Assembly: GCA_030295235.1 (NCBI GenBank)
Contig: AP026133.1
Coordinates: forward strand, 682,001-746,000
Reading direction: 5' to 3'
Length of the DNA: 64,000 bases
Origin: Fistulifera solaris
Taxonomy: Eukaryota
Shown: piece by piece, positions 13,028 through 60,290 of the stretch
Layout: every line of letters starts with the position of its first letter
Numbering within the stretch: the first letter of the stretch is position 1
The notes under the pieces: generated by a model
What the model was told of the DNA's origin: nothing
Database searches by the model: none
Seen by the model: the letters and a program-made list of their open reading frames with translations, nothing else
Program-made: the position numbers and the translations under genes

Positions 13028-13167
13028 TTAACAGCGGTGCTGCCTCCCCACGGTGAAGACGATGTACAATTAGAATGTATCAATTCATTATGTATAATTA
13101 TGATTTGGGTTCTACTGCAACAATTCGGGCGACACGACACACCTGGGTCTCTTCATTAATGCGTTCA

Positions 13168-38480: not shown

Positions 38481-39352
38481 TTAATTTGAGCTGATCATGT
38501 CTGATCCGTCTTCTGCACGGCACTATCTGATGCAACCTACAAGCAAATAGAGCCTTTCGGTTCCTTAGCAAAGTTCAGTTGGATCCCACGGTCCTAGACG
38601 ACAGCAGGGGATAATAGCTAGAGATCTGCTACCAGTTTGCTGTCAGATATCGAATATGAAATGCCATTTAGATCTGGGGAAATAACTTCCCGGCGACAAT
38701 ACTGATTTATGCTTACTTTGTCAATGATAATGACATCAGTGCTGTAAACCTTTGTCATCGAACGTCGAACATCGATTTCAAGCATCGATTTCATCCATTG
38801 ATAGTCGTCGAGCGTCGAACACCGATCGTGATCCATTGATAGTCGTTAAACTTCAAACATCGATTGGGACTGAGAGTTCGCTTATACTTGAAATCTTCAC
38901 AAAGTTATGAAACTTGATAGCTTCTGATGATACATTCCGATCGACATAGTTCATTCTAGAAGACATATCAAAAACAGTATAACCAATCGTGTCTTTCTGA
39001 AGATACTTGTAGCTTGCGATCTCAACATGGCATCCTTTGTATCAAACGTTCTTCGTAGCAGCCATCTAAAACGTCAACAAAAGAAGTACCAATTGGTAGA
39101 TGATTACGTGGTATCAAATATTTCGATAGGAGTTCCCCACCGTGTTTCACGTGAACTCGCATTCTCTTACTATATAGTACTAAAAGAATTGGTTGAGAAC
39201 CAAAGTAGTAAATTTGGTTCGTATTTGTTCAAAAGCCCTTCCTTTGCGATGGTCTAAACATTGTCCTTTAGTCTAAATGCGCCGACCGCCGACTACGAAT
39301 GAAGACTAAGGACGTATATTTTTATACGTGCTTAATGAAGACAACAATCGTA

Positions 39353-39565
39353 CAGATTTTCTGGAAATGGGAAAACACCACACCCACAGATTTTCTGTTA
39401 TCGTGAAAGACACCAAATCCACAGATTTTCTTTTTTCGGGGAGGCCGCAGCCCCAGATTTTCCGGGAATGGGAAACACTAAACAACCAGATTTTCTGCGC
39501 ACGTGAAGACACCACACACCCAGATTTTCTGGGCACAGGAAGACATTAAATACACAGATTTTCTG
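39353..39565 (+). repeat. Degenerate minisatellite, 7 units of 32-35 bp
   Basis: Core CAGATTTTC at 39353, 39387, 39422, 39454, 39487, 39521 and 39555; most units also carry GAA(G/A)ACA. Confidence 0.9.
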
Positions 39566-39610
39566 TGAGTGTAAAGATATTAAATTTAAGTAGGCGCCAA
39601 CCGTAAACGG

Positions 39611-39675
39611 CGTTAAAATTCTGCCTCGTCGTGGACGCTACGTAGAATCTTGTACTGGGAGGCAGAATTTTAACG
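39611..39675. mobile_element. 65-bp hairpin/mini-MITE-like element, copy 1
   Basis: Perfect 17-bp inverted repeats CGTTAAAATTCTGCCTC / GAGGCAGAATTTTAACG around a 31-bp core; a second copy lies at 44873. Confidence 0.7.
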
Positions 39676-39884
39676 TCCTTCCCCGACGTCTGCTGCGACA
39701 GTTGGATGAGTTTTTGATTTCGATCGTGATCGATGACATGAAAAAGTCATAATTATCGAGATTTGACTACAAGGTAGAAACGATTATCGCTATTCATTCT
39801 AATATCTATCACCATTAAAGGCTCAAAGCACTTGACAAGTGTTTAAAACCACCCACATCGCCGACTAATAACAAAGTGCATGTC

Positions 39885-40745
39885 ATGACCTCAATCGTCG
39901 CTCAAAGAAAAGCAGCTATCGAAGCCCAGCTGAAAGCAAACTCACCGGCGAATGACTCAAGGCCTCCGACATCCGCTCCAAAACGAGCTTCTACAGACTC
40001 ATCCCCCTATAAAAACTACAATATCAAAAGGGTGCGAAAGGTGTCTCAAGAGACGAAGAGAGGCTGGGGCTTCACCAAAACAACATACGTCATAAAACAT
40101 GAACAGCCCAATTCTACAAATCCGTCGCTTGCACCGAAAGTCGTACCGCAAGATCTGCCGTCGCAAAACAGCGCTCAACGCCCCGCTCCACCACCAAAAG
40201 CTTCCGGGAGACTTCATGCTACTCTGCCACAAGAAGCCGAGATGCAACCTCCGGTAGAAAACGTGTATTATTCGGATGTTCCTGAAACAGTATCGCTGCA
40301 GTATTCCGAACACGAAGACTTTGAAGACTTGCAACCTCGCTCAGCAGCTTTAACCGAAAATATTGATCAAAGTAGGCTAGAGACGTTTCGGTCAGCCTCC
40401 GACGAGCAGCCATCAAATGTAACAGCATCTCAAAGGCCTCATTCGATTCAACGAACAGGGAACAGTGCCACGTACGTTCCTTCTTTACCAGAAAGACGCA
40501 AACCCGTGGTTCGAGAAATGGCCGACACTAATCCGTCACAAGATAAGGAATACGAGGGTAGCTGGCAAGCTAAGAGGATGTTGCCACCTCAGCCACACCC
40601 GGGTATGCCCACGCCAGATATGGCCGCCGCTGCAGCGGAAAAGTACAACAAAAACAAGGACAGAATTCAGAAAGCTGTGCGAAAACTAGAAGGTGAAGAA
40701 GACCCGGCGGCAAAACGCGGGTTAGGTTGTTGTGTTATTTTGTAG
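39885..40745 (+). CDS. Disordered protein with C-terminal CaaX (CCVIL)
   Basis: Pro/Ser/Gln-rich ORF ending AKRGLGCCVIL*. Confidence 0.75.
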   Translation: MTSIVAQRKAAIEAQLKANSPANDSRPPTSAPKRASTDSSPYKNYNIKRVRKVSQETKRGWGFTKTTYVIKHEQPNSTNPSLAPKVVPQDLPSQNSAQRPAPPPKASGRLHATLPQEAEMQPPVENVYYSDVPETVSLQYSEHEDFEDLQPRSAALTENIDQSRLETFRSASDEQPSNVTASQRPHSIQRTGNSATYVPSLPERRKPVVREMADTNPSQDKEYEGSWQAKRMLPPQPHPGMPTPDMAAAAAEKYNKNKDRIQKAVRKLEGEEDPAAKRGLGCCVIL

Positions 40746-41931
40746 ACAAGAAAAGGTCATTTTACTGTGGTCATGATCTGCCTTCGCCTGCAGGATTGAA
40801 TCCGATTATTCGAGGCTGATGAATTTTGTTAGGATTTTGTTAGGGACGTCCCTTCTTTTATTTGTGACTTGTGACAGTGTAGTTGGAGGTTCCGTTATAA
40901 TGGAGTGATCTTGAGAAGCAAGTACGGAAATTTGGCTATACCGATGTGATGTTGATGTGTGTGACGACGACCGTGAACTCCAGATTTATGACAGCTTCTC
41001 ATCTTTGTAAAGTAAAGAAACCGGTTCTGTTCGGGTCGTAAAATGCTTTCATCGTTCCGTTCTCATTCTCATCGCCATGCATCCTCGCGACCCTCCCTCC
41101 TTCCATCAATCGAGTGGATCCTATTTTTCGCATCATCGTGAATCAGCCATGCGGACTAAACAATTATTTCAAACATATGCACTCGTCTTTCTCAGAACAT
41201 CAATAAAGGGCGATGATACTACACCCGGCGACGAGAAATATGCTCACGGGGAAGAACCGATGACTTATCCTGTAGCTGGAATTGACAACGAGGATATCGA
41301 TACCGTAGAAGTGCAACGCCTGGCCTGTGAATGCGGAAACCCGGGCCTTTGTCCATGTCTTTGATAGCTTACGGATTAATGATATCCCGGAAAAAAACAT
41401 CACTTAAGCGGGTACTAATGCATTTATAATGGATGATGAGCGTTACATTTTAATAAATTTGTGTGGATAATTTCGGCTTGCGCCAAGCGGATTGCATGAG
41501 ACGAATGGGTCTTGCCCGCAGGAAAATTCATTATTCTTTTCACGAGAGAATAGACTTTACAATTGTCGTATCCGTCGCATCATTGATCATCTTAATTGAT
41601 TGATGTGACGAGAAAATGAGATGCATCCTAGGTAGACTTTTTCTACGGAATAATACGTAGAATGTTACGGAGTACATTGTTTGCTGTACTTCGCGTACCA
41701 GGTACTTATTTGTATGCAGAGAACGGAAACCGGAAAGACCTCAGTTTTCTTTTTTGTCCGCGAGGGGACTTTTTTGCCGAGTCGCGCGCCGCTGGGCGTC
41801 ATAATTCAAAATTGAAACAAGAGATCGAGGTTCGACTTTTGTTGTAAGTGACCCTCTTTGTCCATTCAACTATCTTCCATCTTGATCGCCCCGACTTGAG
41901 CATACAACAGTTCGCGTTCAACTTGTAGAAA

Positions 41932-42606
41932 ATGTCGCGCACCATTTCAAGGCAGCGATCCACGTTAACGTTTTTTGTCTTCTGGTGTCTGTTGAGCATG
42001 AGTCGCGGAGCGTTCGAATGCCCCGCAGCGACTGCTCATTGCATGAATGAGGAAAATCACTCACAATGCATGAAACTATTGCAATCTGGATGCGAAGAAT
42101 TCGATACGTTTGAAAGTTGCCCATTACAGTTCGCTTGTAGCAAGCAGTCAGTGGCAGATGCTTGTGTCACACTTCTGGTCTTTCAAGACGACAAGTGCAC
42201 CGGAAAACCTTTGCAAAAAATGACATTTCCAACGTTTAGTAAATCAAGGAAAGATTGCTGTAAGTTGCAATCGTGCTCTTATCTTTTTCGTGAATAACTG
42301 CAGCGTATTGACTCATTCATCATGTTGTGACGACCGAATTCACTTACAGATCACGATGAAGGCACGAAAAATCTTTCCATTCAAAGTCGGTATTGTAATC
42401 GAGAAACCGGCAACTGGCACGAAACGGTTTACTTTGGATCCGAAGACTGTGGAGAGACAAAGCCATGGTGGCAGTTCTGGTCGACAAAATCAATGGATAT
42501 TGTGTTTTCGCCCGATAGCTGCGTTGAGGGGTATCAATTGGGGAAATGTCAATTTCAACCATGCGACAGTGAAATGAACGGAAAGGTTGCTACAGCAGAA
42601 TCATAA
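41932..42606 (+). CDS. Small secreted Cys-rich protein
   Basis: Signal peptide and many Cys. Intron 42260-42349 gives an open exon 2, (Y)HDEGTKN...KPWWQFW...ATAES*. Confidence 0.72.
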
Positions 42607-42846
42607 TCGCAGTATCGCATTATGTAGTTCGTAGAGGGACTATAGCAAGGATTTTTGTTTAGAGTTATTTCAAAAGTAAGGAGTAGACATCCCGTAAAAG
42701 ATAATTGTTATGACGGCGATTCTCTTTGACAAATAATCTCTAAAATCACCATTTACTTGATGCCAGTGATATTCATCTCGATTTTTATCGAATCGATCAG
42801 GGCACACTAGCGATGTCATCACATTCTAGAGTCAACTACTGGAATA

Positions 42847-43428
42847 TTATTCTTTAAACACAAGATTGGGCTTTTGAGTCACATCTACGAGCTTCCCACC
42901 TTTCGTTCTCGGGATTTCAAACGTCACTTTCCCGTCTTGTTTGAGCTTCTCGACCTCACTATCGGCAAGTGCAACAAACGTCCCATCGGTCTTCTTGACC
43001 AGAGTTTTTCCGACGACGCTGAAAAAATCTGGGTAGTTTTTCATGTAATACGCGTCTAGCGCTTCCTGTACAGCGAAAGGTTATGATTTATGAGTTTCAA
43101 AGAGAAGAGAATGTACGTTTATGTCATTCCTGTTGATGTCGGCATTTTACTCCATTTCGTGTTGTCGTCGTACCTGTTGATACCGTTCCCTATTCATGGC
43201 ACTCTTCTCTTGCAAGGATCGGATGAGCTCATTTCCCTCGCTGAGATCACCACAACCTTCGCCTACTCCAGCGGAGCAGTATTTGCTGGAAATCACAGCT
43301 TCGGCAGGCGACGATGAGGCCACGAAAACACCGACGAGGGCTTGTTGCAACAGATTGCGTCGATTGGTTGACGGTTGGTAGCCGAGAGCCAAGCCGATCA
43401 GCATGATTAATACCAAAGTAGATCTCAT
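42847..43428 (-). CDS. Thylakoid-lumen protein, PsaN-like
   Basis: Signal peptide, NRRNLL Tat motif and AEA cleavage site. Intron 43066-43173 yields LQEKSAMNRERYQQEALDAYYMKNYPDFF. Confidence 0.65.
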
Positions 43429-43807
43429 TGATACACACTATGATTTTATCGGAATAGAAATGAACTTTTCGATGCTTACCGTTGCTTTGTTGATCCAGCG
43501 TTTGTGTTTTTCTTTTTCCATTTCTCAAGGCGTCGCTGACGTCACGATTGCGACCTCTCCTCTCGTTTATTGCATGGTGCCGCGACAACGCTAACCTTAA
43601 AATCGTTTTCATCCTGCAATAATGAGCGTCGATCAGGCCAAGAATTAATGCTATTGCTACTTTCTTATCATCCTATTCATTACATCGAGACAAAAGTTAC
43701 ATTCGATCCCTCTCCTTTCTTTTTTCCTTTTGAAGGAAATTTGCGTCCTTGGAGAAACGCGGACTAAATTTACAGAAAAAACCGAACCACTGAAACGATC
43801 TTTTCCC

Positions 43808-44285
43808 ATGACACCTTCTCCCATGCTGAGCGGTCCGATGAAGGCTCATGCTGTCCGCTTGGAACCCGGAGACGATCTCGTCTCATCACTGCAGCGCGTT
43901 GCGAACGATTTGTCCCAAAATAATTGTTTTGTCATTTCCGCCGTCGGCTCCCTATCCGGCGTCACCTTGCGCATGGCCAACGCGACGGCGCAAGGCTCTG
44001 GAACGATCCGCACTTGGAATGAAAATATGGAGATTCTTTCCATGGTTGGTACTTTTGCGCAACACGACAAACACTTGCACCTTTGCCTCTCGGATGCAAC
44101 CGGAGCCACCGTTGGAGGACATTTGGTTTCGGGTACCGTGTATACGACTCTAGAGCTTGTGCTCGGAACTATTGGGGGAATCCGCTTCGAACGCGCTTTG
44201 GATCAAAGAAACTGGTTTCAAAGAACTTGTCGTCACTCCGTTAACGTCTGAAAACACTATCAGAGACGAAAAGAATGAACCCTAA
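43808..44285 (+). CDS. PPC/DUF296-domain protein
   Basis: Motifs VRLEPGDDL, SAVGSL, EILSMVGT, HLHLCLSD, VGGHL and TTLELVL. The C-terminus TGFKELV lies in a shifted frame. Confidence 0.9.
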
Positions 44286-44819
44286 ACACAGAAGTAGTAT
44301 TTCCTTTAATCGACTGCTGGTACATGAGCGCAGTGGAGGGCCACCAATCAAAATTGATCTACTTAGTCGCCCCCCGTTTTCCTTCTAATCAAAATTTTTC
44401 GCAAAGGTCTCGACCCGGTGGAATGCGCCTAGTTCGTCGACTGTCTCGATTTGAACATGGACAAAAAGTGACGTCCCTTCTTGGAATGAATTTCTGCAAC
44501 AGTGTACCTCTTTACACGATATAGTTAGGTCATCTGGGTCGGAGACACGAGTCGGGAAGTCGATCAAATAACTAGAGATTTAGGCAATAGGACCAGGGAC
44601 CACGACGACAGCATTTACCATAAAGTATCACTTTGTAAGCTCTTGCAATAAAGTGGGTGAAGAATAATTACGACAGACGACCAATCCCAACTCCAACTCC
44701 AAAGAAGAATAATGATAAGCACTAAGCACATTAACCATTATCCGGACACGGGTCATCATGAATCATGATCAAAGATCATTGTGAGTCATGAACACTATAA
44801 AACTGTCCGAGACAATTGA

Positions 44820-44844
44820 ACCATGACCATGACCATGACCATGA
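44820..44844 (+). repeat. (CCATGA)4 microsatellite
   Basis: Read directly from the sequence. Confidence 0.9.
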
Positions 44845-44872
44845 AACGACTTGCGCAGTTAGCGAGGAACGG

Positions 44873-44937
44873 CGTTAAAATTCTGCCTCGTCGTAGACGG
44901 TACGTAGAATCTTGTACTGGGAGGCAGAATTTTAACG
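44873..44937. mobile_element. 65-bp hairpin/mini-MITE-like element, copy 2
   Basis: Same 17-bp inverted repeats as 39611-39675, with two substitutions in the loop. Confidence 0.7.
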
Positions 44938-45470
44938 TTCCTTCCAGTAAGCAGTTAGCAGCAGTGCGTAGACCATAATGACCACTTCCGTTTCCGTTGG
45001 AAGCAAGGAGTTGCGACTTGAGACTTGAACCTGGCGACTAGCTACGCGCTACGCAAGAAACCGAACAACTTTATTAGATCGTTGCCATGCGGTCATTACT
45101 AATATGTAACCTACAAACTGTCCTAAGTTCAAACACGGTCCATGTTCTGCATGACTAGAATACTTTTCATTTCCATAATCTTTGTTCCTCAACCGGAATT
45201 GGGATGATGCGCGAATCGACTGATAATGGTGGTTTCTTGTTATCTTCAAAACTCCGAACTTCGACGTACATAAGGAATGGTTCCAGGTACAGTAGATTAG
45301 TATTTGACATCCGTCATCATCACCGTTCACAGTCAGCATTCCGCAGCTGTCAGCAGGCATGAAGGACAAAAAGATCTTCGCATCAATCTCATCAATCATT
45401 TACTAGTATCACAAACATCATCATCGCCTGACAAGAGATGAATTCACGTCAGTGCAGTTGACATTTGACC

Positions 45471-46141
45471 ATGAATTCCAGCTCCCTCAGTCCCAGTCAA
45501 CAGAACAATCTGGCAATCGAACTGCTTTTCGAAGGAAAGATTTCCGAAGCCAAAGCACTCTTCCGTGAAGCCATCGCCAACACAAAGAATGTACTCGACT
45601 ATGCCGAATACGTCACTTCGGACGTGCCAAGTTCATTGCCTTCACCAAAACTACTAGCCGTTTTGCTACCTAAGAAGCTAATGGAATACCAGGCTCGGCA
45701 GGATCGCTAGCGCTATTCCGATGTTCCACAAAGTTTTTGTCACACCCGAACACGTGGGCCCCGAGAATCTCGATCTCGTAGCAGCATCCATTTTTTACAA
45801 TTTGGCTGTGACAAACTCCGTTGAGAAAAACGAGTGTGCTTCCTACAATCTTGAACACAGATTATACAGCTTATCTACAGAGATGCTCAACGCTTCTGGT
45901 TACTTTCATGATCCTACGTGTTGTCTTTTGTTGCTGGCTCTGTGTAACAACATAGCACAAAGTTCTTTCTGTGACGGTCGGGTCAACGAAGCGAGCAGCA
46001 CTTCAAGAGATGTTGTACCTACTGGAATCACGACCGCAGGGTGATTCTATGGAGGAGCGGGATGTTCAGTTCTTCTATTTGAACACCTTGGTCATGAAGC
46101 ACTGTGATCAAATGCGATCCATTTGCTCCCCGGCGGCTTGA
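45471..46141 (+). CDS. Diatom-type helical (TPR-like) family protein, frameshifted
   Basis: Motifs NNLAIELLFEG, ASIFYNLA and LLLLALCNNIA, ending SPAA*. Two frame breaks, either error or pseudogenisation. Confidence 0.6.
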
Positions 46142-46544
46142 TTTCCAAGTCGCGGCTACCACCACTGATACCTTAGTTTTGTCGTCAAAGGATTTTATTG
46201 TCTTCGTGAATTGCATTTTAACGATACCAGTAACAGTGAAAATTGAAATAATCCGAAATTTTGAATACTGTTAAGTTAAAGTCGTGTCCCGGTTACTTTC
46301 GAGGCTATAGTAAGCTTGTAACTCTAACCCTGGTACAAAACTAAAGATGGCATCATGCGGACGAAAATAGCACGCAGCGACGACGACTCGGGTTTTTGTA
46401 CGAAGTTCTCGGCGTCGTTGCCAAAGCATTTCTTATTAAATTGCAAACGAATAAGCCCATGGTTTGTTTTGAATGATTACTGTACTCCCTCTGTCGTTGC
46501 TTTCTGTGTGGTTGACGAACAGTTTGAATGATTGTGCCGCAACA

Positions 46545-47367
46545 ATGCCCATCCACTACATGACCGTCGGTGACCCTTCTCGACGCATTGCCGTCGCACG
46601 AAGATCGATCCAGTGAAGTTGGCGTCTTATTTCTTCCAGGCTTTCATTCGAAAATGGCATCCAACAAGGGGAACGCGATCGCGAATTGGGCTCGCACGCG
46701 CAACTGTTCTTGTACTCTGTTCGATTATTCCGGCAGCGGCGCATCGGGGGGAGATATTCAAGAGGGCACGATCAGTCGCTGGTTGGAAGAAAGCATGTGT
46801 GTCTTTTCCGAGCAGACACAGGAAAGGCAAATACTAGTCGGCTCTAGTATGGGAGGATATCTGGCGCTTCTACTATGGAAGCAAGTGTTGAAGGAATACC
46901 CACAGGAGGCGACCCGAATCCATGCGTTGATCTTAATTGCTCCTGCTTGGGATATGACGGAAAAACTCCTTTGGAATAGGTTTTCGCAAGGCATTCAGAA
47001 TCAGATCTGGTCGAGCGGTGTGTACAATCGACCTTCGGCGTATGGAGACGGTCCCTATCCCATAACGCGACAGTTGATTGAAAACGGTCGAAAACACTTG
47101 TTGTTTGCCGACGGCTGGCAGTTTCCGGAACAGCGTCCCCCGATTTTCATTTTACATGGCATTCGAGATGAAGATGTTCCGCACACACATTCCATTCAGC
47201 TGACTGAATTGCTTCATGACGGCAACACGAGACTTCAACTGGTTGAAGATGGCGATCATCGGTTGTCACGACCGGAAGATTTGGAGCTATTGTGCGCGAT
47301 ACTCGACGCTGCATTGAGCAGCGATCATGTCGATACACGCACAAATGATGACAAAAACACTATCTGA
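46545..47367 (+). CDS. Alpha/beta hydrolase, ABHD10-like
   Basis: Motifs FLPGFHSKM, FDYSGSG, GSSMGG, ILHGIRDEDVP and DGDHRLSR. The in-frame N-terminus MPIHYMTVGDPSRRIA requires one indel near 46600. Confidence 0.88.
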
Positions 47368-47886
47368 ATTCCGAAAAGAAACGTTCTGGAACCCAGCCGG
47401 TGTCTCCTGCTTCCTGGTTAATTATTCAGTGTGTGTGCAAAGCAATGAAAGACGGTCATCATGTGTTCACGCGGAGAAGAACGCTCCAATAAGCTAGTGA
47501 TTGAAGCAAACGCGCAACACTGGAAGTTTAATACTGCTCATTCATGGCTATTTGATTATGAACCCATTTGTTTCCGAAATGGCGTCGATAGAAAGTGGTC
47601 GTTCTTGAGAACGAAAGCAACTCAAGAAAATGAAGCGAAATATTCCAGGAGACTGCGGGAAATTTGATAACGGTGAAAATTCCCGAAAAACAGTTTGTTC
47701 TGGTTATGAAATAATACTAAGAAATAATCGATTTATTGTTGGTTTGGCTACTTTGCGCATCGTAAAAGCTGTAATTTCCTGCAGAAAGAAAAAATTTACT
47801 CCGTATTCAACAATATCCATTGAAAAATCCTACCGTACTCCGTAGAACGTGTGGCTCAAAGGGTACCGTCGCGAATTAAGGATACA

Positions 47887-48841
47887 ATGAACATCAAGTT
47901 CAATTACTCTACGTTCCAGGCGCGTGAGTTTTTGAGAAGCGGATGCTTCATTATGGGCGAGTCGCTGGAAATGCGCAACTATCAGCCTACTCTCGTGCAA
48001 ACTCGACGATTCCAATCGCACTTTGGAGTATCCCCAATCCAGTGTTCTCAGCTGTGGATTCTACTGAAAGTACCAGAAAATGCTAGATTCAAGCATTTGC
48101 TCTGGGCATTGCTAAAACTGAAAGTGTACGCGACAGAAGAGGTTCTCAGCGGAATGGCTGGATGCGATGAAAAGACCTTTCGAAAATGGTCTGACCAGTT
48201 TATTGATGCCCTTTCTTTGCTCTCCTCCTGTCTGGTAAGATGTAGACGCTATTTGTCGTGCGTTTCCTGAACCATGAATCATGACTAACAACTACTCAAT
48301 TTTCGTCTGGGTAAGATAAACTGGAATAGTCGAAAGAAGAATGGAGTTCATACATTTTCGGTTGATGGAACCGACTGTCCGATCAATGAACCAAGTCCTT
48401 TTTCGCCTAAATGGTATTCTCATAAGTTCAAGAGTGCGGGTTGCGGTCTCGCTTTTCGCAAGTGAAATAATCTGGATCAACGGACCGTTTCCTTGTGGAG
48501 AATACCCCGATTCAAAAATTTTTTGGCGAGACCTTGTAGATAAACTTCCAACTGGTGAACGAGGCATAGCTGACCAAGGGTATCGATCAATTGCCCAACT
48601 TACCATAAAAAGTCGTGGTCACCAGAAAGGGAAATGTGTCTTGATCGGAAAAGTCTTAGATCGACACGAAAATGTGAATCAACGAATCAAGCGGTTTGGA
48701 TGCCTGCGACAGCGTTTTCGCCATGGTTGGAGATGCCATGGCAAGTATTTTAGAGCAGTCGCTTCTGTCGTTCAATTGCGATTGAAAACAGACAATCCGA
48801 TTTCTTCGCTACCAAAGAATAGTCGAAATCGAGAACACTAG
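47887..48841 (+). mobile_element. PIF/Harbinger (DDE_Tnp_4-type) transposase, damaged
   Basis: N-terminal HLLWALLKLKVY...DEKTFRKW; intron 48235-48315; catalytic SVDGTDC, WYSHKF, IIWINGPFPCG..PD, IADQGY and RHENVNQRIKRF. A small deletion/frameshift lies near 48440. Confidence 0.9.
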
Positions 48842-48846
48842 ACTGA

Positions 48847-50376
48847 TTACACTAAGCTTTCGATACGCGAACTGTAATTCCAAGAGATACATTTGATATA
48901 ATCTTCGTCTTTGTTTAAAACTTCTTGTTTGTCGCGTTTGCCCACATCAAGTGTGATGTATTTGTCTCTGATGTCTGTCTCGAGAATAATTGAAATCGCT
49001 TCGCCATCATTTGTTTTGGATTTCTTAAAAAGATGAATAGTCGAAATTTGATCGTGAAGGTTGTTGTTGTTTGTTTCAGTCGCAGTAACATCCAAATCTC
49101 TCTCTTTTACGCCATGATGAGCTTCAGAAATTTCTGTCAACGCCGCGATATTTTTTGACGAGTTCAGCGCTTCCATATATTCAAAATCACGTTTCCCAAG
49201 CGCTTGAATATCATAGCTCATAGCTTCAGGTAAAACTTCGAGTGCTTGCTCAGTTGTGAATTGCGAACGCATATTTGTGGTTAAAGATACTGCTCTGGCG
49301 AGAGATGTAGGAGGAGGGGGGTGACGCGCCAAAAATCTTGCGTTCAAACTAGGGGTCTCTTGTGTATTGCTAATTTTAATCGCATTCCAAGGTAAATCAG
49401 CATCGTGAAGTGCTGCCTCAACGCCGCCAGGTAAGTCGCGTAACGCTGAAAGGGGCAAGGATTCCTGTTTTTGTTCTGCAGATGCAGTAATGTGCTCCTT
49501 TGACTCCATTTTAGCAGAGACAGCGATTGCGAATTGATCTAGAGTAGTTTTTCGATCGCCGCTTCCACCGCCGATCGTATTTTTAGCTAACGAGTCATCC
49601 AAACCAAAAATTGTCTGTCTTTTGACCTGCTCTGGATCCGTCTTATTCGGCACAACAGGCTGATCGCCTTTCCTTGTCTCTTTCTTTTCCGCGTCAAATA
49701 CACTGCGTACATGCTCTGAAGTGACAAGCTGGTGGTCGGACGCTTCGTTGTTTTTCACCGTAGGCGGTGCTAGCTCTACAGTCGTGCTTACTTCTTGATC
49801 CATTGAAGCGCGAAAACTAGTGGCCATCCGATCCGACATAGTAAGTTTTTGGCGCCGGCCATGTGGACTATCCGTAAAATTGGTTGCGACCTCCTCCATT
49901 TCGATTGCCGCCACTACTTCGTTTTCATCGCCCTTTCTACTTTTCATTGTTACCACGCGGAACGGACGATTCTCGTCTTTGTCGTCCAACTTTTTAAGTT
50001 CGACTACCCCATCGTTAATCACCTCACGATGCGAAAAAAAGATTTTTCTATTTTTCGCCTTGAGTTCTTTCAGTTTTAGTCTGTGCGCAACAACAAGGGG
50101 GTGGTTCTCATTCATGTCACGGCAAAGGACAAAGAAATCGTCGTGGAACATCAAAGCTTCAGTAATGTCAATCGTGACCTCACTTCCATTCCTATTGATA
50201 CGACATTCAACGGAGTTGCTGCCGTATGCGGTTCGGGGTCGAAGCCCGGATAGAAGATTTGTGTACTGCGAAACGCGAAGATTTGCCTGCCGGTTGTACC
50301 AGCCATAAACAACGGACCCTGGAAGTTTTCCGTGAATTGTGACGGTCTCTTCACTCTCTTCGATATTCCTTTGCAT
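48847..50376 (-). CDS. Transposon-associated ORF A (HPxVVAH domain plus disordered tail)
   Basis: Intact 509-aa ORF convergent on the transposase, 5 bp apart; contains LPGSVVYGW...SG...HPLVVAH...IEME. Confidence 0.75.
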   Translation of the reverse strand: MQRNIEESEETVTIHGKLPGSVVYGWYNRQANLRVSQYTNLLSGLRPRTAYGSNSVECRINRNGSEVTIDITEALMFHDDFFVLCRDMNENHPLVVAHRLKLKELKAKNRKIFFSHREVINDGVVELKKLDDKDENRPFRVVTMKSRKGDENEVVAAIEMEEVATNFTDSPHGRRQKLTMSDRMATSFRASMDQEVSTTVELAPPTVKNNEASDHQLVTSEHVRSVFDAEKKETRKGDQPVVPNKTDPEQVKRQTIFGLDDSLAKNTIGGGSGDRKTTLDQFAIAVSAKMESKEHITASAEQKQESLPLSALRDLPGGVEAALHDADLPWNAIKISNTQETPSLNARFLARHPPPPTSLARAVSLTTNMRSQFTTEQALEVLPEAMSYDIQALGKRDFEYMEALNSSKNIAALTEISEAHHGVKERDLDVTATETNNNNLHDQISTIHLFKKSKTNDGEAISIILETDIRDKYITLDVGKRDKQEVLNKDEDYIKCISWNYSSRIESLV

Positions 50377-50879
50377 GCTAATAGTGATTCTACAAAAGAG
50401 AGTTGATTCAATAGAAGACAGAAGCTGAAAGCACTGAATAAATAAAACTAAAAACTGAATTTGAGATCAGTCATTTTGTTGTGCGTGTAAATCATGCGTT
50501 GCGTGTTGTGTGCTGCGGGACGAGGAGATGTTCGTTGGTCGTCCTTCGTTGCTTGGTGCTTGATGCCTGTACAGTATCGGTCATCAGTCCCACGTTTACA
50601 GTTTTAATCCGGTTATGCTAGCTATGTACTGTACCCTGTACCAGGTACCGGTACCGTACCGTACTGTAGGATTGTCGGTGTATACGTCACTAGTCGCTGT
50701 CGCTGGGGTGGCCAGTGGCGAGTGGCGAGTGGCCACAGAACACAAACCGATAATACTCCACTCTCCACTACAAGTAAATACTACGTACTACGGTAAGATC
50801 AAACGATTTTCATTTGGGCTTTGGGCACTACTTATTCAACGTCTTTACCTTTTACCTGGTAATGGTACTACGTACGGTG

Positions 50880-51397
50880 CTCTGTGCACGATTGAAGTCC
50901 CAATCAAACTTCCAGCTTCAGTCATTTACAAGTGGGACACATTGCAGACAAACTATTATTCCCAGCAATCAGTTTTGATCTCGGGTATCGATCCTGCAGA
51001 TGTCCATTTCAGTATTAGTCCATCTGGGAAGGAAACCGAGATTCGGATGAAGGGCGACTCTTCTATCATGATGATGCCAGAAGAATTCTGGCAAGCTGTT
51101 GCTCGGAACGAGTACCCAGCGTCGCATCCAAAAGTTGTAGCTCATATGAAGGCAATCAAGAAGCTCAAAAAGACTTCAATGGCGAATTCCGTTGTTTATG
51201 TACACAAGGTAGATTTGCCGGAAAAGGTCGGGCCTAACTTTGTTCCTCTCCCTCCTTACGAAAAAGGAGCTCGCATCTCCCTCATGGGAACGAAAAAGTG
51301 CCCAGAAATTGTTGCGGGTCTTGAAATGAAGATGGAGGATGATGGTTTTCAATCTCCTACGTTGATGGGTGCTTCCCGCGACGTTCGTTTGGGATAG
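50880..51397 (+). CDS. Transposon-associated ORF B (HPxVVAH domain), possibly 5'-truncated
   Basis: Contains LPASVIYKW...SG...HPKVVAH...VDLP...LEMK. The upstream part of the called ORF (from 50615) overlaps intergenic TA ladders and is probably not coding. Confidence 0.65.
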
Positions 51398-51463
51398 TTC
51401 ATTGCTTGGCAGGACAGCCATTGCGTGTATCTATAATCTCGAACAAAAGAACTGTAGACACGT

Positions 51464-52919
51464 TTACAAAACAACAAAACTATAAAAGTAGATTACACTA
51501 ATCCTATGGTATCTAGATATTGGTATGTTTTGCCTCACTCTGGTCTCCGTACTTTTTATCATCTTTGGGAGCGCCAGCAGGTTTGGCACTGGCCGGGGAG
51601 GATCCTTCAGATTGCTGTTCGTTGTAGTCTTATCAACATCCATAGGTGTCGCACCTTTGCTATTCAAGCCTAAGAAATCTCGGATGTTGTTCTGATGTTC
51701 GTTTTCAAAGACAAAAGTCGTGGTCGTCGGCGTCGTCGTCTCTCGTCCCTTTCGCTTCTTGTTTTCGCGATCCACACTCATATCGTTGCTTTCCTCCGCG
51801 TTAGAGTCGTTTGCTTCTGTTTGCTCATCTTCATCGTCAAAGCAACTCTCCCATGCGTCAGGAACAGTCTGGCTGCGGAATTCGATAGGACGAGCTTCCT
51901 TCATCTCCATGACAACAAACTGCTCCTGCGATCCTTGCACCCCAAACTTGAGTAGAACAAGCTGGTGTTCCTTTGGAGTATCCGGATTCCACTGCATCTC
52001 AACATCAAATGGCAATTCAATTCGACACTTCTTGACAATTCGTTTGCGTGGGTCGCTATCCTTGATATCTTTTATAGCTGAGTTGTGCGCAACAACTTTC
52101 GTGTGGTTCGGACCATGAGCAGCGTCTTTCCAAAACTTCTCGTCAAATTTCTTGGGATCATAGATCGAGTCATCCGTAACGTCAATGGCAACAGTCGCAG
52201 TCCGGGGATTCTCGATGTATGCACTGACGTAGCTCTTCAAACCGCATCCGGGGGCTGGGGTGCGCAACGCGCCTGCAGGTAAGCGAACAATTACCGTCAC
52301 ATCCGCGCCTGGTTTGATCCTACCCATTCGAGCACGAGCAATGGGAGTTCAAAATCAACGTTGGCATTCGGATTCTTTTTCTTGCCCGAATTCTTGTCGC
52401 TCTTGTCGCCTTTGTTTTGTGCTGCTTTCTTCTTCTGGCAGTCTTCAGCGTCTATATCGATCCCTAATGAAACGGTCAGATAGGTTTGTTGAAGGCAGCA
52501 AAGAGGAATAAATGAAAGCTTACCACCAAAGTTCTCGTCAAGGTCATCCAAGCCCGTTCCACCAACATCGTCGTCATCATTGGCATCTGATGATTCGTAT
52601 CCCGCAGCTGCGGCCATTGCAAGAATTGCCGGATCGACTAGAGCCGGTTTGAGACATTTCTTCCACACCTTGGCCTTCTCTTTCCACTGCTTTCGGGCGC
52701 CATCCAAATTGGCGGTGAAGTTTCGCTTTTGTATTGGAAGAAAGGACTCATGGCCCGTACCGCTGCCGGCCCTTCGCCGCCATCTTTCTTTCCCTCTACC
52801 TTGATAAGCTTCGTCTTCAGCATGTAAATTAGAGTATGCCATCCCTCGCAATCTCCGCACTCTTTCCATGCTTTTAGATTGGGGTCAAAGTCGTCATCAT
52901 CGTCATCTTTCTTTGGCAT
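51464..52919 (-). CDS. Transposon-associated ORF C (putative N-terminal DNA-binding region plus HTKVVAH domain)
   Basis: Contains LPLLVLEW, then after a frame break VIVRLPAG...HTKVVAH...IELPF...MEMK. Probable intron 52464-52523; frame breaks near 52730 and 52300. Confidence 0.7.
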
Positions 52920-55709
52920 TGTTCAAAGCTCGAGTGCTGCGTTCTGAGTGCGTGAAATCGTTGCTGCCGGCGATTTGTGAGAATTACCGATTGTTACCAA
53001 AACCAAGATCCGCGAGACGCGGAAATGTGCTTACGTACAAGCGTGAAGCGTGAAGCATGGGGAAATCACAGATCACAGCATCATCAGACATCAGATTCTG
53101 TCACGAATGTCCGATGTCCCCGTTTTAAGTACGTTCAAATTATTTAGCATCATTTAGCATCTTCCTGTTTCCAGCGTCTCATGTCTCATGTCTCATTTCA
53201 TTGCTTGAACACAGAGAACTGTGACGTTCGACAGTCGACAAACAAATCACCAAATCACCTGGTCCTGGTATCGACTATCGACGCTCGATGCAGCTCGACG
53301 GCTTTGGTGATTATTTATTATTTTATCCGCTTGAGGCCCAAGGAATGCCTACTTTAAGTAGATGTTTGAAGACACAAGACACCCTAGTTTAGAAAATCAT
53401 AATATAATAATGTACTTTACAAAAATGAAGCAAAAAACTCTAGGACCTAAAGAATCCCGGATTACGTACTACTTTCTGCATCTAAAATCTAGAGTCTCGA
53501 GTCACGAGTTTTCAGTATCCCGTGGTGAATTCCGAATACCAGAATGACGATGGAGAATGGAGATTGGAGATCGAGAACGAGGACAACAGCAAAACAGTGA
53601 AACGTTCCAGTTAGTGTTTACTTTACACAAAATCACAGAGACACAAAAAATGACATCATCAATCATCATTCCTCATCTACCATCTTTTTTTTTGAAACAC
53701 GATACACGATCAACGATCAGAACTCGGAACTCGCAACTCGCAACAAAACAAATACAGAGTAAAATACTCCGTACTCCGTACCAGGTACGGGGTACGGAGT
53801 AGGGAGTACAAAAAACTCCGTAGGCAAATGGCAATAAAAAAATCAACTAGTCTATCAGCGTTCATAAATTTAGTCCAAAAACGAGAAACGAGTTCCAAGT
53901 TCCAAGTTCAAAGGGTCCAAGGTCCAAGGGTCATTGGTCATAGTTCTGGTCAGCGAAGACCGAAGACTACCAGGTACCTACAATCTACAAGTATAGCTCC
54001 AACTCTCTCTACAGAGGTCTGCTCTGGCCTCTGAAAAGTAAGAGCACATGACAAACAGTCTGCTAGTCTACACGTCCATTGCTCATTATTTCGCCCTCAG
54101 CCTCACCCATAACAGGTACCGTAGCAGAACTGATAGCCAAATTCGGCTTACCATAACTTCTTGTACGGATTTTCGAACGGTAAGCTGTCAGTTATCAAAT
54201 CGTTTCGTACCGTTACAATGGGGAGGAGCGCACGCGTGAAACACTTCGGCTAGCGTCAATGCAGTCTTCCCGAGTTATAATTGAGGTTATTCTTAATCCT
54301 AATCATCATCAATCATCGTCACGATCGTCCATCCTCAAATATTTCACGAGGAACACATTCATAGCTCGTCCGCTACCAATCCACTCAAGAAATAAAGTGG
54401 CGAATAACCATCGTTATGTTATGATAGGTAAACTTTCATAGATTTCCTAATTATGATATTTCCCGCAGTCTCCAGGAACAATCAACGCCGTGTGAATGCG
54501 AAGGTATTTTATTTTGATTACTTGAGAGGAGCCCCGAAATATGTCACTCCCGCGTGACAGTGTATGTGTGTCGAGGCGCAATAGTCGCACCTTTGCTGTG
54601 GAATATTCGACTCTTGTCTTTGCGTCTCCACTCAAGGTATTTTCCGTTCCACGACCCCCATAGACCTCATCAACGAATAAAAATTGCGTGGGACATTGAT
54701 GTAATGGCAGTGAGTTGAGTTTCCAATTCTATCACAAATTTGGGTCAGTGCATTTCTCACTCTTCCACTAACAAATCCTTTTTACGCACGCGAACATGTC
54801 GAATTTCCAGTCTCTCCTTACCATTTTCTATTTGCTTCTTTTGAGTCGCCACGCAAGCGGTCAAGTTGCTGGTCGTCGTATGCAAGTTCGTAAGCTCGGA
54901 AAGGGCTATTCGAGCCAGTGGATGGAGGAAGTTTTGGACGACAAGAAGGAGGTGTGTCTTCGACGATGTATGTAACTTATATGCTGCTCTGCGCCTTCTC
55001 TAACAACTGTTTTTCGCAGATGGAATACTATTGGAGCCATTCCGTCGAAACATCGTTGTCTATGAGTTGGTCCATGAGTTATCCTATTCACACACGCGGA
55101 AAGGAGCGCAAATTGAAAGCCTAATTCGCTTTTGTGTGAATACTTCCCAACTCTTTTACTTCCTTAGTTACGATGATCCGTAAAATCCCGTAAAGAAAGA
55201 AAGTGGGATGAACATTGGCAGTGTTATAAATGTTGGCTGTTAAATGTTGATGGTTACTATCGTTTTCGTAACCAATAATTGAAAAAATGTCGTTACCAAA
55301 TTAAGATTTCGCGTATATTGCTCTAGGACCCACCAGCATTAGTGTAGCGGTCGATTGAAAAGCTCCTTTTATAGTTTATGGTGCGTTTGTTTTGAGACTT
55401 GCTATTCAATCAGCTACTGGTACGATCACCGAAAAATGCAAAGATCCTCGCGAGAGCGTGGAGCGTGGACGTGGACGTGGACGAATAGGGATCAGGTCAC
55501 GAGCGTGCTCTATCATACCCGCATTTTTACCTGTGCGACACACCGTGTCGTCGAACGGGTATTACATTTTTCAACCGACTTTGTTGCAACCATGGACGAT
55601 TAAAGCGAAAACATACCAGTATCTACCGACAATCTAAAAAGCTCTGCATTAAATTCAGATGATCGCTGCATTGATATAAGGTCGAGTGACGAGGAGCACA
55701 CCGCAAGCC

Positions 55710-58700
55710 ATGTCGACGTTTTTCCGGTCAGCGGCAATGTCCATTTTGTCGAGGACATTGCAGACATTGCTTTACAAATACTTATTAGATGTCGACGTAG
55801 AAGGAGTTGCCTTGCCGTCGCTGTACGAAAACGGCTGGGGAGTTCGCCTTTCTAATGTAAAACTTCGAGAGGGTATCAAATTGATGGACCTTCCCGGAAC
55901 TTTTCCAAAGAAAAGCGACGGAAAGAGAAAAACGCTCGCAGAAGAGGTCTTCAAATGATCCAGAGAAAAATTCAGCCAACAACACCGAGAGTGAAACGAA
56001 TGATCATAAAAATTCATTTCATGCATCTCAGACTGGAATCTCTGACGTGAATGTTGACCCAGAAGACCAAATTCCTGCTGTGGAAACGAGCAGCTCTTGG
56101 TTTAGTCGGCTTTACTGCCGCTCCACACCGCAAGCAGTTACCGTTCCTCTAATACCTGAACCTATAAAGCCTACCCCTGACCACGCTCATCAGCCAGACG
56201 ATCTTGTAGATGTTGCAGAAGCACTTCCGAATGGCGAGGAGTCGTCTGAAAATACAGAAGCGTCAGACCACGAAGCAAAGTCAGATCCTTCACCGCCTGT
56301 CATTTTGCGACTTGGGAAAGATGGTCATATTGGAGTTTTAGATGTCCGACTAGTTGGAAAAAGTATTCGAGTACTAGTTGAGGACGCATCACTGACGGTG
56401 GAAGTAATACAGGCTCGTGTAGACGACGAAGAGGATGCAACAGAAACATCGAAAGCTGAAGTCCGCAAAACGCTAAAAGACACGAAACCCCCGTCTACAG
56501 TGGGTGAGCGAGTTCTTGCAGAAAACTCCTTGGCTCGCATCTTTTCGGCTATTCCGAATCTGTTTCTGAGAGACATTCGGCTACGAGTCATTATTCGAGC
56601 AAACGCGACGGTGTCATCGTCCTCCCCACAATCGGAAGAAGTGTCCGAGGAAATCGAACAAGATGACACCGTTTTAGATTTTGCAATCGAGCTACTTTCT
56701 GTCACAGACGGAGAAGACTTTCTCTCAAATTTTCGAGCAGCGGCTGACGTGGAATCTGTTTCCGACTACGACGAGAATGAAGATCACACCGAGTCGGTCA
56801 CAGAAGAAGCTTCTGATTTCTTTAAGAGCAATCCCAGCAGAGACAACTTTAACGAGTTTGATGTGAAGCGCATTCGGACAGGTCGCGGTGAAGAAGGCGG
56901 CGTAACGATACGAGTCTATTCTGGTTCTGATATGGGCAATTTCGATAGAAGATACACTGCGCCCGTATGGGCTCGCCAGCAGTTTCTGTCATCGTCAAAC
57001 TATTATGCTTTGCGTTTATCGGGTGTTGACATCGAGTCTCGTGTGTTTCTGGGCGAGAACAGTGATCTCGTAGCTTCGGGTGATGTATATGTCGATGATT
57101 TTCGAATGGACTCGATGTTATTTAATATCGACTTCATTGCCCCCGCTTCGAAGAAGCCTCTCCCGCCAATCAATTCGAAACACGAATACCTTGAAAAGGA
57201 CGACCAGTCATGGTCCTTACCTGGTGCAACGACGTTTGCTGCAGATATGAATGGAATACAACGATGCGGCTTGAAGAGTAATTTCCATCGAGTTTCGCGA
57301 GGCATGGTACCTGTCCCATGTGATGGCAATCATCTCCCATGTGAATATTGTTCGAAATGCTGGGTAGAATGTCAGAGCAATCCAATTAATAAGCATTTCT
57401 TGGACAATTCTCTTCCCATGGGTGGATTCGTGATGCATGCTTCAATTCGTGATATTCTTGAGATCAATGTTGACCGTCGATTGCTCGAGACAATTGCGAT
57501 ATTGGTTAAAGTGTTCAAGAGACGAACCTCGCCCGCAGATGTGGAACTGGAGACAGCTGAATCACAAGCAGGGGATAAGACTGACACTAGCGATATCTCT
57601 GAATCTTGGGATGTCGACAACAGCAAATCACAATTGTTTTCTACAAGTTTCCATGATGATAGGGCTCGCTCTAGAACATCAACTCAACGGGGTACCAAAG
57701 ATAAAAGTAACGGAACGAGGAACGACGAGGATGCGTCTAAATCTTCAGTCCGGACCGTCAACGAGAACTTAAATTCATCGTTCCCACCATACATGCAACC
57801 AGAAAAAATCCAAATTCTCGGCCTTCATATCGGGGAAGTAAAGTTTCGAGTCCACATACTCCGTAACGACTCACCCGATCGAAATTTTACTTTCTGCTAT
57901 TGGGATCTTAACTCAAAGTGTCTGACCGCTGACGTACAGCGTCTTACGGCCAGTGAGTGTCCATTTCAAGATACTCGAATTGATATCGGGCAACTGATGG
58001 TGGTAGAACATATTGGCATTCAAACCAAAATTCTAGCAAGCTTGGGAACGCGGCATCCAGAAGTCGATCTCGATGAAATGACTGTTCAGACATTACTTTC
58101 CAAGGAAACCGACAATTTGCGCCCTCCGTGGCCATCGACCGCAGCTATACTTCTCGATTTACCGCCGCCTCTTGAAACAATTCTTTACGAAGCACGAGAA
58201 AGACATGGTTTGCAACTACGACTTCTAAAGGTTGACACCTCTCCACAGTCATCTTCAAGAATACCGACTAGTCTGAACGTTGCGCTTGGAAGTACTTCCG
58301 TAGACGTTCCTTTTGGAGTCCAAAGCACGGTGTCGTCAGTAATCAATATCGCGAAGAATATCGTTATGGGAACTCCAATTGAAGTGGATGGCAAAGATGA
58401 AAACCCACTGGCAAGTTGTTCAACAAGCTCCGAGGGACGTGACTCGGTGATTCTCTACAAACTTCGTGCTAGTGGAGGGAGAGTGAAAATGCACCCCAGG
58501 TTCGATGTTAGCTTGCCCCTTTCGACAGCATTTGGTGAATGGTCGTCTTTGTCGGGTATTTGCTTGGAAACTGTGCTAAATGGTGCAAGGATAAAATACT
58601 CTAATCCTACTTCTTCGAGAAGAAATGAACGTTTCCTTTCCTTGCAAAATTTGGCTGAATTACCGGAGCATGTTCGACTCAGAATACTGCTTTTCCTTCC

Positions 58701-58980
58701 TGATTTAAAGACGATGGAAAAAGCACTTGGGATGAAAGCTGCCCCCAATTCCTTCATGCGATGCCGCGCGGTTAATAAAGGATTGGTAAAGGTTGCTCGG
58801 AGAATGATGACGAACACGCTGACTGAGCACGAAGATGATGAACCTTCGAAGACGGTAAGTCGTCGACAAGAGCTCATGGAAGAATTCATGAAACTTGGAG
58901 AATCGGAACTAGAAGATCTGTTCAGAATATACAATCGACGCCTTAAACAGTCGAGCAGGAATCCCACCTCGCGCCGTTGA
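55710..58980 (+). CDS. Large protein with chorein_N/VPS13-like N-terminus
   Basis: N-terminus ILSRTLQTLLYKYL...GVRLSNVKLR, then GHIGVLDVRL...IRVLVED and NLFLRDIRLRV. A 977-aa downstream ORF is joined through an intron or indel near 55950-56045. Confidence 0.55.
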
Positions 58981-58981
58981 G

Positions 58982-60290
58982 TCACCTGCGATGAGTGTAC
59001 TCAACTTCGATAAGATTCAGTGCTCGCTGAGCCAGCTCGTATGCTACCCTAGCAAGATTGGCTTCTGCTAGAGATGCTTCCATTCTGTCTTTCAAGTGCA
59101 AATCCTGGTCATTTACTAGTTTGTCCAGCATGACGCCAAGGTGAATTAAATCGAATACTTTTTCTGATGCGGTATACTCGTGAGGTGGACTCTGAGTAGG
59201 AAGTAGTTTCACCATACCCACAAGTATCATAAAGAAGAAAGCAGTCACATCTAGGCCTACACATCCCCGTAACATAGATTCTTTCGCGTCCCAACCGTAC
59301 ATAAGTTCCGGAGTCGATTCTTCCCATTCCTTCAGCTCGGTCTCGACAGACTCTAGTTCACCCCGTATGCATTGCCAAACCGAGCCTAGATTCGATGAAG
59401 TGATCCAATTGTGATTCACTGATAAAGTTTCTCCAATATTCTTTACCGTATGAGGCATCATGGCAGGTACAAACACGCAGTCTCCTGCATGCTGCAAGAG
59501 TGTAACGGGAGCTGGGGTATAGAACGTCCACTCTTTCGTACCAATGATATTGAACGACCAAGAAAATGAGTTCAAGACATCTGTATGCCGGCCCGTATGT
59601 GACCCATCTGGTCCCCAGTAGGTAAATCGATAGTCTCCGTTGGTACACAGCAATTGCATCTGATTCAGTAAATCGCATTCGAAATGAGGCGGAGTCTGAT
59701 ATAATGGTTCCTCATTCGGAAAATTTGATTCATAATACTTCTGAAAGTGCCAATCCTTCAAATAAAAATCATTTGACGAAGTATCCAATTTTTCGAACCA
59801 TTCCGTTAAAGTGAGATGTTCGGTTGAAGGCTCGTAAGCACGACCTTGATCATCGACGGCAGACAATGTGGACGGGTTTGTTCGCTTGACGGGCAGAAGA
59901 TCTGCTTGCCTCCATTGATCCGCAAACCACTGTCGCCGCTTTTCCGGGGATCTTCCCCACCACTCCATAATTCTTCCAAAATATCGTTCAGCCCAAGCGG
60001 GATCTTGAATGAGACAAGGGCGATTCGTTTTTAGGACGAATTGCTCACGAAATTGGCTTGGACACGGCATTTCTTGAAGAATTGCAGGGGGAGGGGAAGA
60101 CGATGATTGCGGGAATGCCTGCAAATGCTTTTTTTTGGAAGAACTCCGTATTCCGTAGAACTGTATCATTTTCTGGTAAATGTTTGTCTTTTAGTTGACT
60201 TATACAGAATTCAAGCGCTCGACGCATCGAAATTGTGTGCTCGGAAAGAAATTTCTCTTCGTCATTTTCGTGAGGAGTCTCGTCGTCCAT
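58982..60290 (-). CDS. JMJD4: JmjC-domain oxygenase, JMJD4-like
   Basis: Motifs NRPCLI, YLKDWH, DYRFTYWGP, HTDVLNSFSWS, GTKEW, FVP...HTVKN and SVNHNW. The N-terminus lies in a shifted frame across the T-run near 60130. Confidence 0.88.

Follow-up and report, generated by a model that had tools for sequence, protein, structure and literature searches.

Ladders of TA-bounded steps in the Fistulifera solaris genome as possible stacked excision footprints of TA-inserting elements

We analysed a 64-kb stretch of gene-dense eukaryotic DNA (45.6% GC) from the diatom Fistulifera solaris (contig AP026133.1, positions 682,001 to 746,000; hereafter the window), in which short steps bounded by TA dinucleotides are strung into ladders. 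In these ladders, copies of two dispersed 9-mers, TACCWGGTA and TACTCCGTA, are densely clustered. Both words recur exactly and at scattered places, have TA at either end, are chained through shared TAs and are specific to one of the two subgenomes, Fso_h and Fso_l, of this allodiploid species (Nomaguchi et al. 2018, PMC5935921). On balance, we lean towards reading the ladders as stacked excision footprints of TA-inserting elements of the Tc1/mariner type, partly expanded by local tandem duplication. The ladders and a related cluster lie at the following positions:

9509–9541, no strand: ladder A, TA CCAG TA CCTGG TA CCGG TA CCGG TA CCAGG.
41666–41704, no strand: cluster B, TACGGAGTA (41666–41674) and TACCAGGTA (41696–41704), with a gap of 21 nt.
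50614–50668, no strand: ladder C, ten TA-delimited steps, TGC, GC, TG, CTG, CCCTG, CCAGG, CCGG, CCG, CCG and CTG.
53765–53808, no strand: ladder D, TA CTCCG TA CTCCG TA CCAGG TA CGGGG TA CGGAG TA GGGAG TA, six 7-bp steps.

A preliminary description of this DNA had parsed 53765–53808 and 50627–50668 into phased, TA-bounded steps and had pointed to a similar ladder at 9509; re-reading the letters confirmed both parses and the similarity. The 7-bp phase is strict in ladder D, whereas the part of ladder C at 50627–50668 (TA CTG TA CCCTG TA CCAGG TA CCGG TA CCG TA CCG TA CTG TA) advances by 5, 7, 7, 6, 5, 5 and 5 bp. Likewise, the proposed hairpin was recovered in ladder D, an imperfect palindrome centred on TACCAGGTA with arms (53765–53782 and 53791–53808) that are 94% complementary and a fold of −17.8 kcal/mol (z-score −7.2 against shuffled sequences). 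Ladder A, which holds an exact (GGTACC)x3 at 9520–9537, forms a hairpin as well (z −4.1), but ladder C does not form a significant one (z +0.3). The TA-closed part of ladder A is 9509–9535, and its final CCAGG has no closing TA. The TA chain around ladder D begins at 53753, with an extra CTCCGTA at 53816. The ladders are not isolated: cluster B, a fourth cluster, sits within a looser TA chain starting at 41644, and small chains occur at 22622–22636 and 47831–47844. An outer inverted repeat around ladder D (53720–53740 and 53882–53902, 81%) fell within low-complexity noise and was discarded. A perfect 42-bp tandem duplication (9950–10033, 2.0 copies) lies 400 bp to the right of ladder A.

Chains of at least three TA-C..G-TA steps occurred three times in the window and in none of 200 dinucleotide-preserving shuffles, in which the longest chain had two steps. 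Single steps of this kind numbered 90, compared with 29.8 ± 5.3 in the shuffles. TACCWGGTA was found at 10 sites (0.10 expected), TACTCCGTA at 7 (0.23 expected) and the longer palindrome GTACCWGGTAC at 4 (0.02 expected). When all TA-x-TA words with x of 1–6 nt were evaluated under a third-order Markov model, TACCWGGTA (p = 4e-13) and TACTCCGTA (p = 1.5e-8) headed the list, and the next-best word reached 9e-4. Leaving aside codon-repeat and A-rich words, TACCWGGTA was the most recurrent 9-mer in the window. The word of the Sleeping Beauty type, TACWGTA, was not enriched in the window (6 sites, 5.6 expected). TA itself is depleted there, at 0.61 of expectation, and CpG is not. Copies and short chains outside the ladders and cluster B were as follows:

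20402–20410, no strand: single TACCAGGTA, 225 bp before the ATG (20627) of the GH72 gene FisN_2Lh345.
22548–22556, no strand: single TACCAGGTA, 117 bp before the ATG (22665) of FisN_2Lh346.
22622–22636, no strand: two-step chain TA CTGG TA CCAGG TA, ending 29 bp from the FisN_2Lh346 ATG, with its 9-mer 37 bp before that ATG.
27460–27468, no strand: single TACCAGGTA, intergenic.
47797–47844, plus strand: two TACTCCGTA copies, at 47797 and 47836, the latter part of the chain TA CCG TA CTCCG TA (47831–47844).
50846–50874, no strand: TA chain TA CCTTT TA CCTGG TA ATGG TA C TA CG TA, holding TACCTGGTA at 50853.
53968–53976, no strand: single TACCAGGTA, 160 bp to the right of ladder D.
57857–57865, plus strand: TACTCCGTA within the long open reading frame (ORF) 55885–58977, perhaps by chance.

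Of the TACCWGGTA copies, six are solitary, as are three or four of TACTCCGTA, and the flanks of these single copies are unrelated. A TA came directly after 10 of the 14 TACCWGG and after all 7 TACTCCG, and half-sites were close to background. Because the flanks of single copies are unrelated and half-sites are near background, the unit is the 9-mer including both TAs (the 17 exact copies have TA at both ends by definition). One-mismatch variants were enriched only about two-fold (16 against 7.4 expected for one word, 16 against 8.5 for the other), and the mismatches were distributed across the nine positions, a spectrum that looks like exact copies decaying rather than like a degenerate binding site. 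Furthermore, shorter words expected from CCAG...CTGG ends (TACCAGTA, TACCGTA, TACGTA, TACCATA and others) were enriched outside the ladders (49 against 29.9), placing this end third among 170 end 4-mers.

Ladders C and D, like the chains at 22622 and 47831, contain neighbouring steps of unlike type that have a single TA in common. Around the exact 9-mers, 20 of 34 sides had another TA step within 1–6 nt (counted by eye, the sides not being independent), against a background of 0.29 per side (839 of 2906 TAs). Insertion at TA predicts that unlike steps share a TA; neither slippage of a single unit nor factor sites that arose independently would readily produce this.

The first of these two alternatives is that the ladders are degenerate micro- or minisatellites of GGTACC, TACTCCG or GTACC(G), built by replication slippage into fold-back palindromes with no transposon involved. 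Adjacent exact duplicates, (GGTACC)x3 at 9520–9537 and (TACTCCG)x2.4 at 53765, fit this, and unrelated 7-bp arrays of about three copies fill the 3-kb gene-free stretch around ladder D. Self-match runs of at least 11 were found nine times at lag 6 and five times at lag 7, and never at lags 1, 2, 4, 5, 8 or 10; since none occurred at lags 1 or 2, mono- and dinucleotide microsatellites are absent. Head-to-tail copies of a single unit make up parts of ladders A and D, but not the mixed steps of ladder C or the dispersed single copies. Slippage leaves unexplained the six single TACCWGGTA and three to four single TACTCCGTA at separate loci with unrelated flanks, the joining of steps of unlike type and length through a shared TA, and a subgenome bias that extends over thousands of promoters. 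We consider it improbable as the source of the ladders.

That bias is documented in earlier work. Motif discovery in 500-bp promoters of F. solaris (Nomaguchi et al. 2018, PMC5935921; Table S4) returned as Fso_l-biased words MCCTGGTA (6.9e-99), CCWGGTA (3.7e-95), TACHRGTA (4.3e-75), RGTACY (1.7e-62) and RCTMCGTA (6.6e-15), together with ACCTGGTA, CWGGTAS, CGGTACY and CGGKACTS, and as Fso_h-biased words TABASTA (4.1e-28), TABAGTA and others. The table matches no factor to any of them. In the available text of that study, TABASTA alone is discussed, as a possible enhancer, and expression tends to be higher in whichever homoeolog contains it. CCWGGTA, MCCTGGTA, "footprint" and "transposon" do not occur in the main text, and the one "transposable" in the portion available refers to the subgenome method used in Xenopus. 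Both 9-mer words are therefore already published as unexplained promoter motifs of subgenome L, and the TA-x-TA words of subgenome H are different ones. The window itself appears to belong to an L-type chromosome, if "2L" in the locus tags is read as the Fso_l partner of chromosome 2. Because the two subgenomes share one nucleus and its factors, a lineage-specific transposon history explains the bias much more easily than binding sites do.

Binding sites are nevertheless the obvious alternative: the words would be recognised by one or two transcription or general regulatory factors, and the ladders would be homotypic or heterotypic promoter clusters. TACCWGGTA is palindromic, like the sites of dimers, and its density of about one per 6 kb is like that of general regulatory factor sites in yeast. 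Sites lie 37, 117 and 225 bp before known ATGs, and ladder C lies about 160–200 bp past position 50471, where the contigs covering ORF 48850–50466 end. The words were also found by promoter motif discovery, and one of the H words, TABASTA, goes with higher expression as described above. However, a single nucleus with one factor pool would have to yield a bias of p ~1e-95 and different words in H, no factor was matched in Table S4, and both words are missing from 73 kb of other-diatom DNA (see below). Sites that overlap by TA every 5–7 bp cannot all be occupied together. A binding site should not tolerate insertions or deletions, yet spacing variants (TACCAGTA, TACCGTA) are enriched, and no tolerant position emerged among the one-mismatch variants. 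Ladder D, moreover, lies at least 900 bp from any long ORF. Position relative to genes does not separate the two readings, since upstream sites are expected of a promoter element and equally of a transposon that seeks promoters. Taken together, we regard factor binding as an unlikely origin of the words.

We also searched 14 metagenome loci of other diatoms encoding relatives of the GH72 gene (42–60% protein identity). Neither 9-mer was present in their 73,403 bases, in which about 11 and 8 copies would be expected at the density of the window. One locus, L007, whose GH72 protein is 55% identical, has TA ladders of its own, with the steps CAG, CTG, CA, CATG, CTCC and GGAG; an example is TA CAG TA CTG TA CTG TA CA TA CTCC TA CTG TA. 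They occur on both sides of the gene (221–258, 2267–2296, 2309–2321 and 2422–2433), and TACTCCTA (4 against 0.14 expected) and TACWGTA (9 against 2.07) are enriched. These steps correspond to the classic end fragments of Tc1, Sleeping Beauty and Stowaway elements. L007, which comes from another diatom-like organism, thus has ladders that are built in the same way from other words.

A candidate source of the CCWGG step was found in the window itself, in the form of a short hairpin repeat that might be a miniature inverted-repeat transposable element (MITE). Two copies were located:

44862–44947, no strand: hairpin repeat copy 1, candidate TA-flanked MITE of about 86 bp, of which the core 44868–44938 is common to the other copies.
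39606–39676, no strand: hairpin repeat copy 2, identical to copy 1 at 69 of 71 bases, with diverged outer ends.

Copy 1 has perfect 17-nt arms (44873–44889 and 44921–44937) around a 31-nt loop with two GTAC, folds with a z-score of −5.8, and is flanked by TA on both sides (44860–44861 and 44948–44949). The arm sequence reads CC[A/C]GGAA(A)CGGCGTTAAAA... The repeat shares general features of MITEs: it is shorter than 500 bp, non-coding and multi-copy, and its inverted arms fold into a hairpin. A tandem array of 34–35-bp units (39338–39565, 6.7 copies, with the near-palindrome CAGATTTTCTG in each unit) ends 40 bp before copy 2.

The abundance of the repeat was evident from contigs of four sequencing runs (X1–X4), all from one study, which we mapped to 40001–60000. 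Contig depth reached 2102 in the bin of the repeat at 44868–44938, compared with 15–47 elsewhere in this region, and loose contig ends accumulated at copy 1 (44866, 44868 and 44873 on one side; 44920, 44938 and 44945 on the other). The repeat is dispersed, because at least 61 X1 contigs (18 + 38 + 5) have a break at the left edge of the repeat, and their flanks differ. At the three displayed junctions of other genomic copies, the letters between TA and the left arm were CCCGG, CCCGG and CCAGG. DNA like ladder C joins the left arm through "GTACCGTACCCGGA" or "GTAGCGTACCAGGA" in contigs, and a tandem pair of copies is split by "CCTGTCCTGGTACGGTACCCGGA", which can be read as right arm ...CCTGG, TA, CGG, TA, left arm CCCGG..., with TA on both sides. 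The hairpin repeat is thus a multi-copy candidate element whose ends, if read as CC[A/C]GG...CCTGG next to TA, would match the commonest step, CCWGG. The preliminary description had called for resident elements with termini matching the steps, and had inferred repeated insertion and excision by several element families. The hairpin repeat may supply such termini for CCWGG, and repeated use of TA sites is supported in part; elements with CTCCG termini were not found, and a contribution by element families is shown for one at most.

The same junctions bear on another explanation, that the words are relics of transposon ends and not scars. Ladder D could then be a decayed micro-MITE (TA + CTCCGTACTCCGTACC ... 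GGTACGGAGTAGGGAG + TA); alternatively, the words could be parts of the hairpin repeat family that were copied together with it. Ladder D is indeed a TA-flanked pair of 16-nt inverted repeats, ladder-like DNA directly adjoins hairpin copies elsewhere in the genome, and a truncated hairpin copy (joint from 44936 to 53760) is followed by 27 ladder-type letters and then D-like sequence. Against this, single copies conserve only 9 bp, too little for a decayed element, and ladders C and A are not pairs of terminal inverted repeats (TIRs). Cluster B was considered as a decayed hairpin copy and rejected: the two have only a 10-nt word in common (41654–41663 and 44901–44910, in the loop, around ACGTAGAAT), and the rest could not be aligned. 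A search of the window for TA-flanked TIRs yielded only ladder D, the inner arms of the hairpin and an unrelated inversion of a gene pair. We give little credence to end relics as the general explanation.

In the footprint reading that we favour, an element would insert at TA and duplicate it, and on its exit repair would leave a few terminal bases between two TAs. An element with CCAGG...CCTGG ends would leave a TA-CC(A/T)GG-TA scar, and one with CTCC...GGAG ends would leave TA-CTCCG-TA. In the former case, the two near-self-complementary five-base ends could pair, and repair of the central mismatch in either direction would give TACC(A/T)GGTA. Each scar would supply a new TA at a favoured spot, so that later steps would share TAs, and local tandem duplication of 6–7-bp units may have copied some steps. 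The cycles of insertion and excision were probably fewer than the steps, because identical neighbours (CTCCG x2, CCGG x2 and CCG x2) may be duplications. Within this scheme, we infer the excision origin of the scars, the size of the staggered cut, the acting transposase and the order of events.

A more far-reaching version of the footprint reading is that the ladders are self-reinforcing and that scars of a mariner-type MITE with C...G ends have turned, in one parental genome, into the "promoter motif" with the strongest subgenome bias. TA hot spots would then grow stepwise, because each excision of a C...G-ended element creates two new (G)TA(C) targets. We put this version forward tentatively, as a possibility that is more doubtful than footprints as such. 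Should it be true, CCWGGTA and TABASTA would be transposon footprints that date and phase the subgenomes, some of them perhaps co-opted as regulatory sites.

Several observations weigh against the footprint reading. For the CTCCG step, no element ending in CTCC(G) came to light, and shorter variants expected from CTCC...GGAG ends were not enriched (22 against 18.0; rank 118 of 170). None of the 109 ORFs of at least 110 aa in the window matched a transposase family. The ends of the hairpin element are poorly defined: copy 2 has TA directly before its first base and none on the right, and the consensus of 38 left flanks ends in ...GGACCCAGGA (agreement 0.41), with no clear TA. The three TA-CC[A/C]GG junctions were displayed owing to their likeness to the ladders of the window, which is a selection bias. 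In addition, a 9-bp direct repeat, GCAGTTAGC, surrounds copy 1 (44855–44863 and 44951–44959); it could be a 9-bp target duplication by a different class of transposon, or a prior small tandem repeat whose TA took the element. Under random orientation of scars, a palindrome as near to perfect as ladder D would arise in about 1 in 16 cases, and the steps TGC, GC, CCCTG, CGGGG and CAGAG fit neither family. Every intergenic site lies upstream of some gene, 37–225 bp before the ATG where this is known, as a promoter element would. The commonest fragment, CCWGG, has 5 nt, unlike the 1–4 nt that excision of the plant mariners Osmar5 and Ppmar2 leaves in yeast according to the available text of PMC9632168. 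Finally, a 14-step TA ladder in another locus (L006:2910–2969) resembles a degenerate (TAGC)n microsatellite, with 13 TAGCTA on the 7.3-kb contig against 1.5 expected, and favours slippage.

If the words are footprints, the strongest subgenome-specific "promoter motifs" of an oil-producing diatom record past transposon traffic and not factor sites. The expression bias of homoeologs would then be read differently, as active promoters may simply draw more insertions. The 7-bp scars would allow DNA to be assigned to the two parental genomes by thousands of lineage-specific markers, and multi-step ladders would be a countable record of the reuse of TA hot spots, which has so far been documented for no more than one or two events at a site. 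The footprints would further point to a small, highly mobile MITE that might find use as a tagging tool in diatoms. The motif itself is already in print; our literature searches found neither the ladders nor the hairpin repeat, nor a reading of the motif as a footprint. A full-text search for the 9-mers returned only primers and barcodes, and searches on diatom MITEs, mariner-like elements and footprints returned nothing relevant.

Other features of the window were recorded alongside. ORF 20970–22196 corresponds to FisN_2Lh345 (100% identity), the GH72 gene, and FisN_2Lh346 is the next gene after it. No Rfam family matched at the gathering score anywhere in the window, and scanning metagenomes for the hairpin repeat by its two arms gave no matches. 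A long inverted duplication (11486–13590), with arms that match over at least 40 nt at several offsets, sets ORFs 11261–11905 (plus strand) and 13171–13935 (minus strand) head to head; the former has a weak allene-oxide-cyclase-like Pfam match. The 7-bp arrays, found at 53000–53935 and also at 10624, 27124, 37018, 38756 and 50708, include the units AAGCGTG, ATCACAG, GTCTCAT, TCTCGAG, TGGAGAT, AACTCGC, AGTTCCA and GTGGCGA, among others. Runs X2–X4 resemble transcript assemblies, to judge by a poly-T loose end at 48892, although this is a guess, and their zero cover of ladders C and D was not counted as evidence. A deletion in the homoeolog was considered from one contig that skips 52921–54443, but this contig is a chain of 23–37-nt pieces at unusual depth and was not trusted.

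Among known systems, SBP-box and copper-response sites are similar in that many steps contain GTAC or CCGTAC. Their GTAC core is not kept here, however: the four single TACTCCGTA are followed by A, T, G and A, never by C, and the single TACCWGGTA are preceded by G in three of six cases and followed by C in two of six. SBP factors are known from the green lineage. Another parallel is the footprint of Sleeping Beauty and Tc1, TAC(A/T)GTA, in which near-self-complementary overhangs pair and the central mismatch is repaired in either direction; TACC(A/T)GGTA follows the same near-palindrome logic and is two bases longer. TACWGTA itself shows no excess in the window, although it does in L007, and it falls within the Fso_h word TABASTA. 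The hairpin repeat also lacks the CTCCCTCC-type end of the plant Stowaway consensus. Compared with the published Fso_l motifs, the words are the same; they were treated there as possible enhancer-type motifs, and neither TA-sharing ladders nor the hairpin repeat were described (PMC5935921).

A further close resemblance is to Stowaway and the plant mariners (PlantMar, DD39D), in which TA lies on both sides and a few element-terminal bases are retained, although here the footprint itself is deduced. PlantMar has been placed in plants and stramenopiles, in a paper whose available text does not mention the word "diatom" (Dupeyron et al. 2020, PMC7325037). Putative Stowaway footprints in Triticeae, for example those of the beta-amylase intron, consist of TA, 2–4 nt of the 5' TIR, 1–2 nt of the 3' TIR and TA, as in TACTCC...AGTA, according to the available portion of PMC1925063. 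The CTCC-type fragment is shared, appearing here as TACTCCGTA, which would fit CTCC + G from an element with CTCC...GGAG ends, although no such element was found here. Like Stowaway, the candidate element is a short MITE-like repeat that forms a hairpin. For Stowaway in Triticeae, insertion of a new element at a TA that already adjoins an older footprint has likewise been documented (PMC1925063, available portion). In contrast to the one or two steps known from Stowaway, the ladders described here have up to 6–10 steps in a row.

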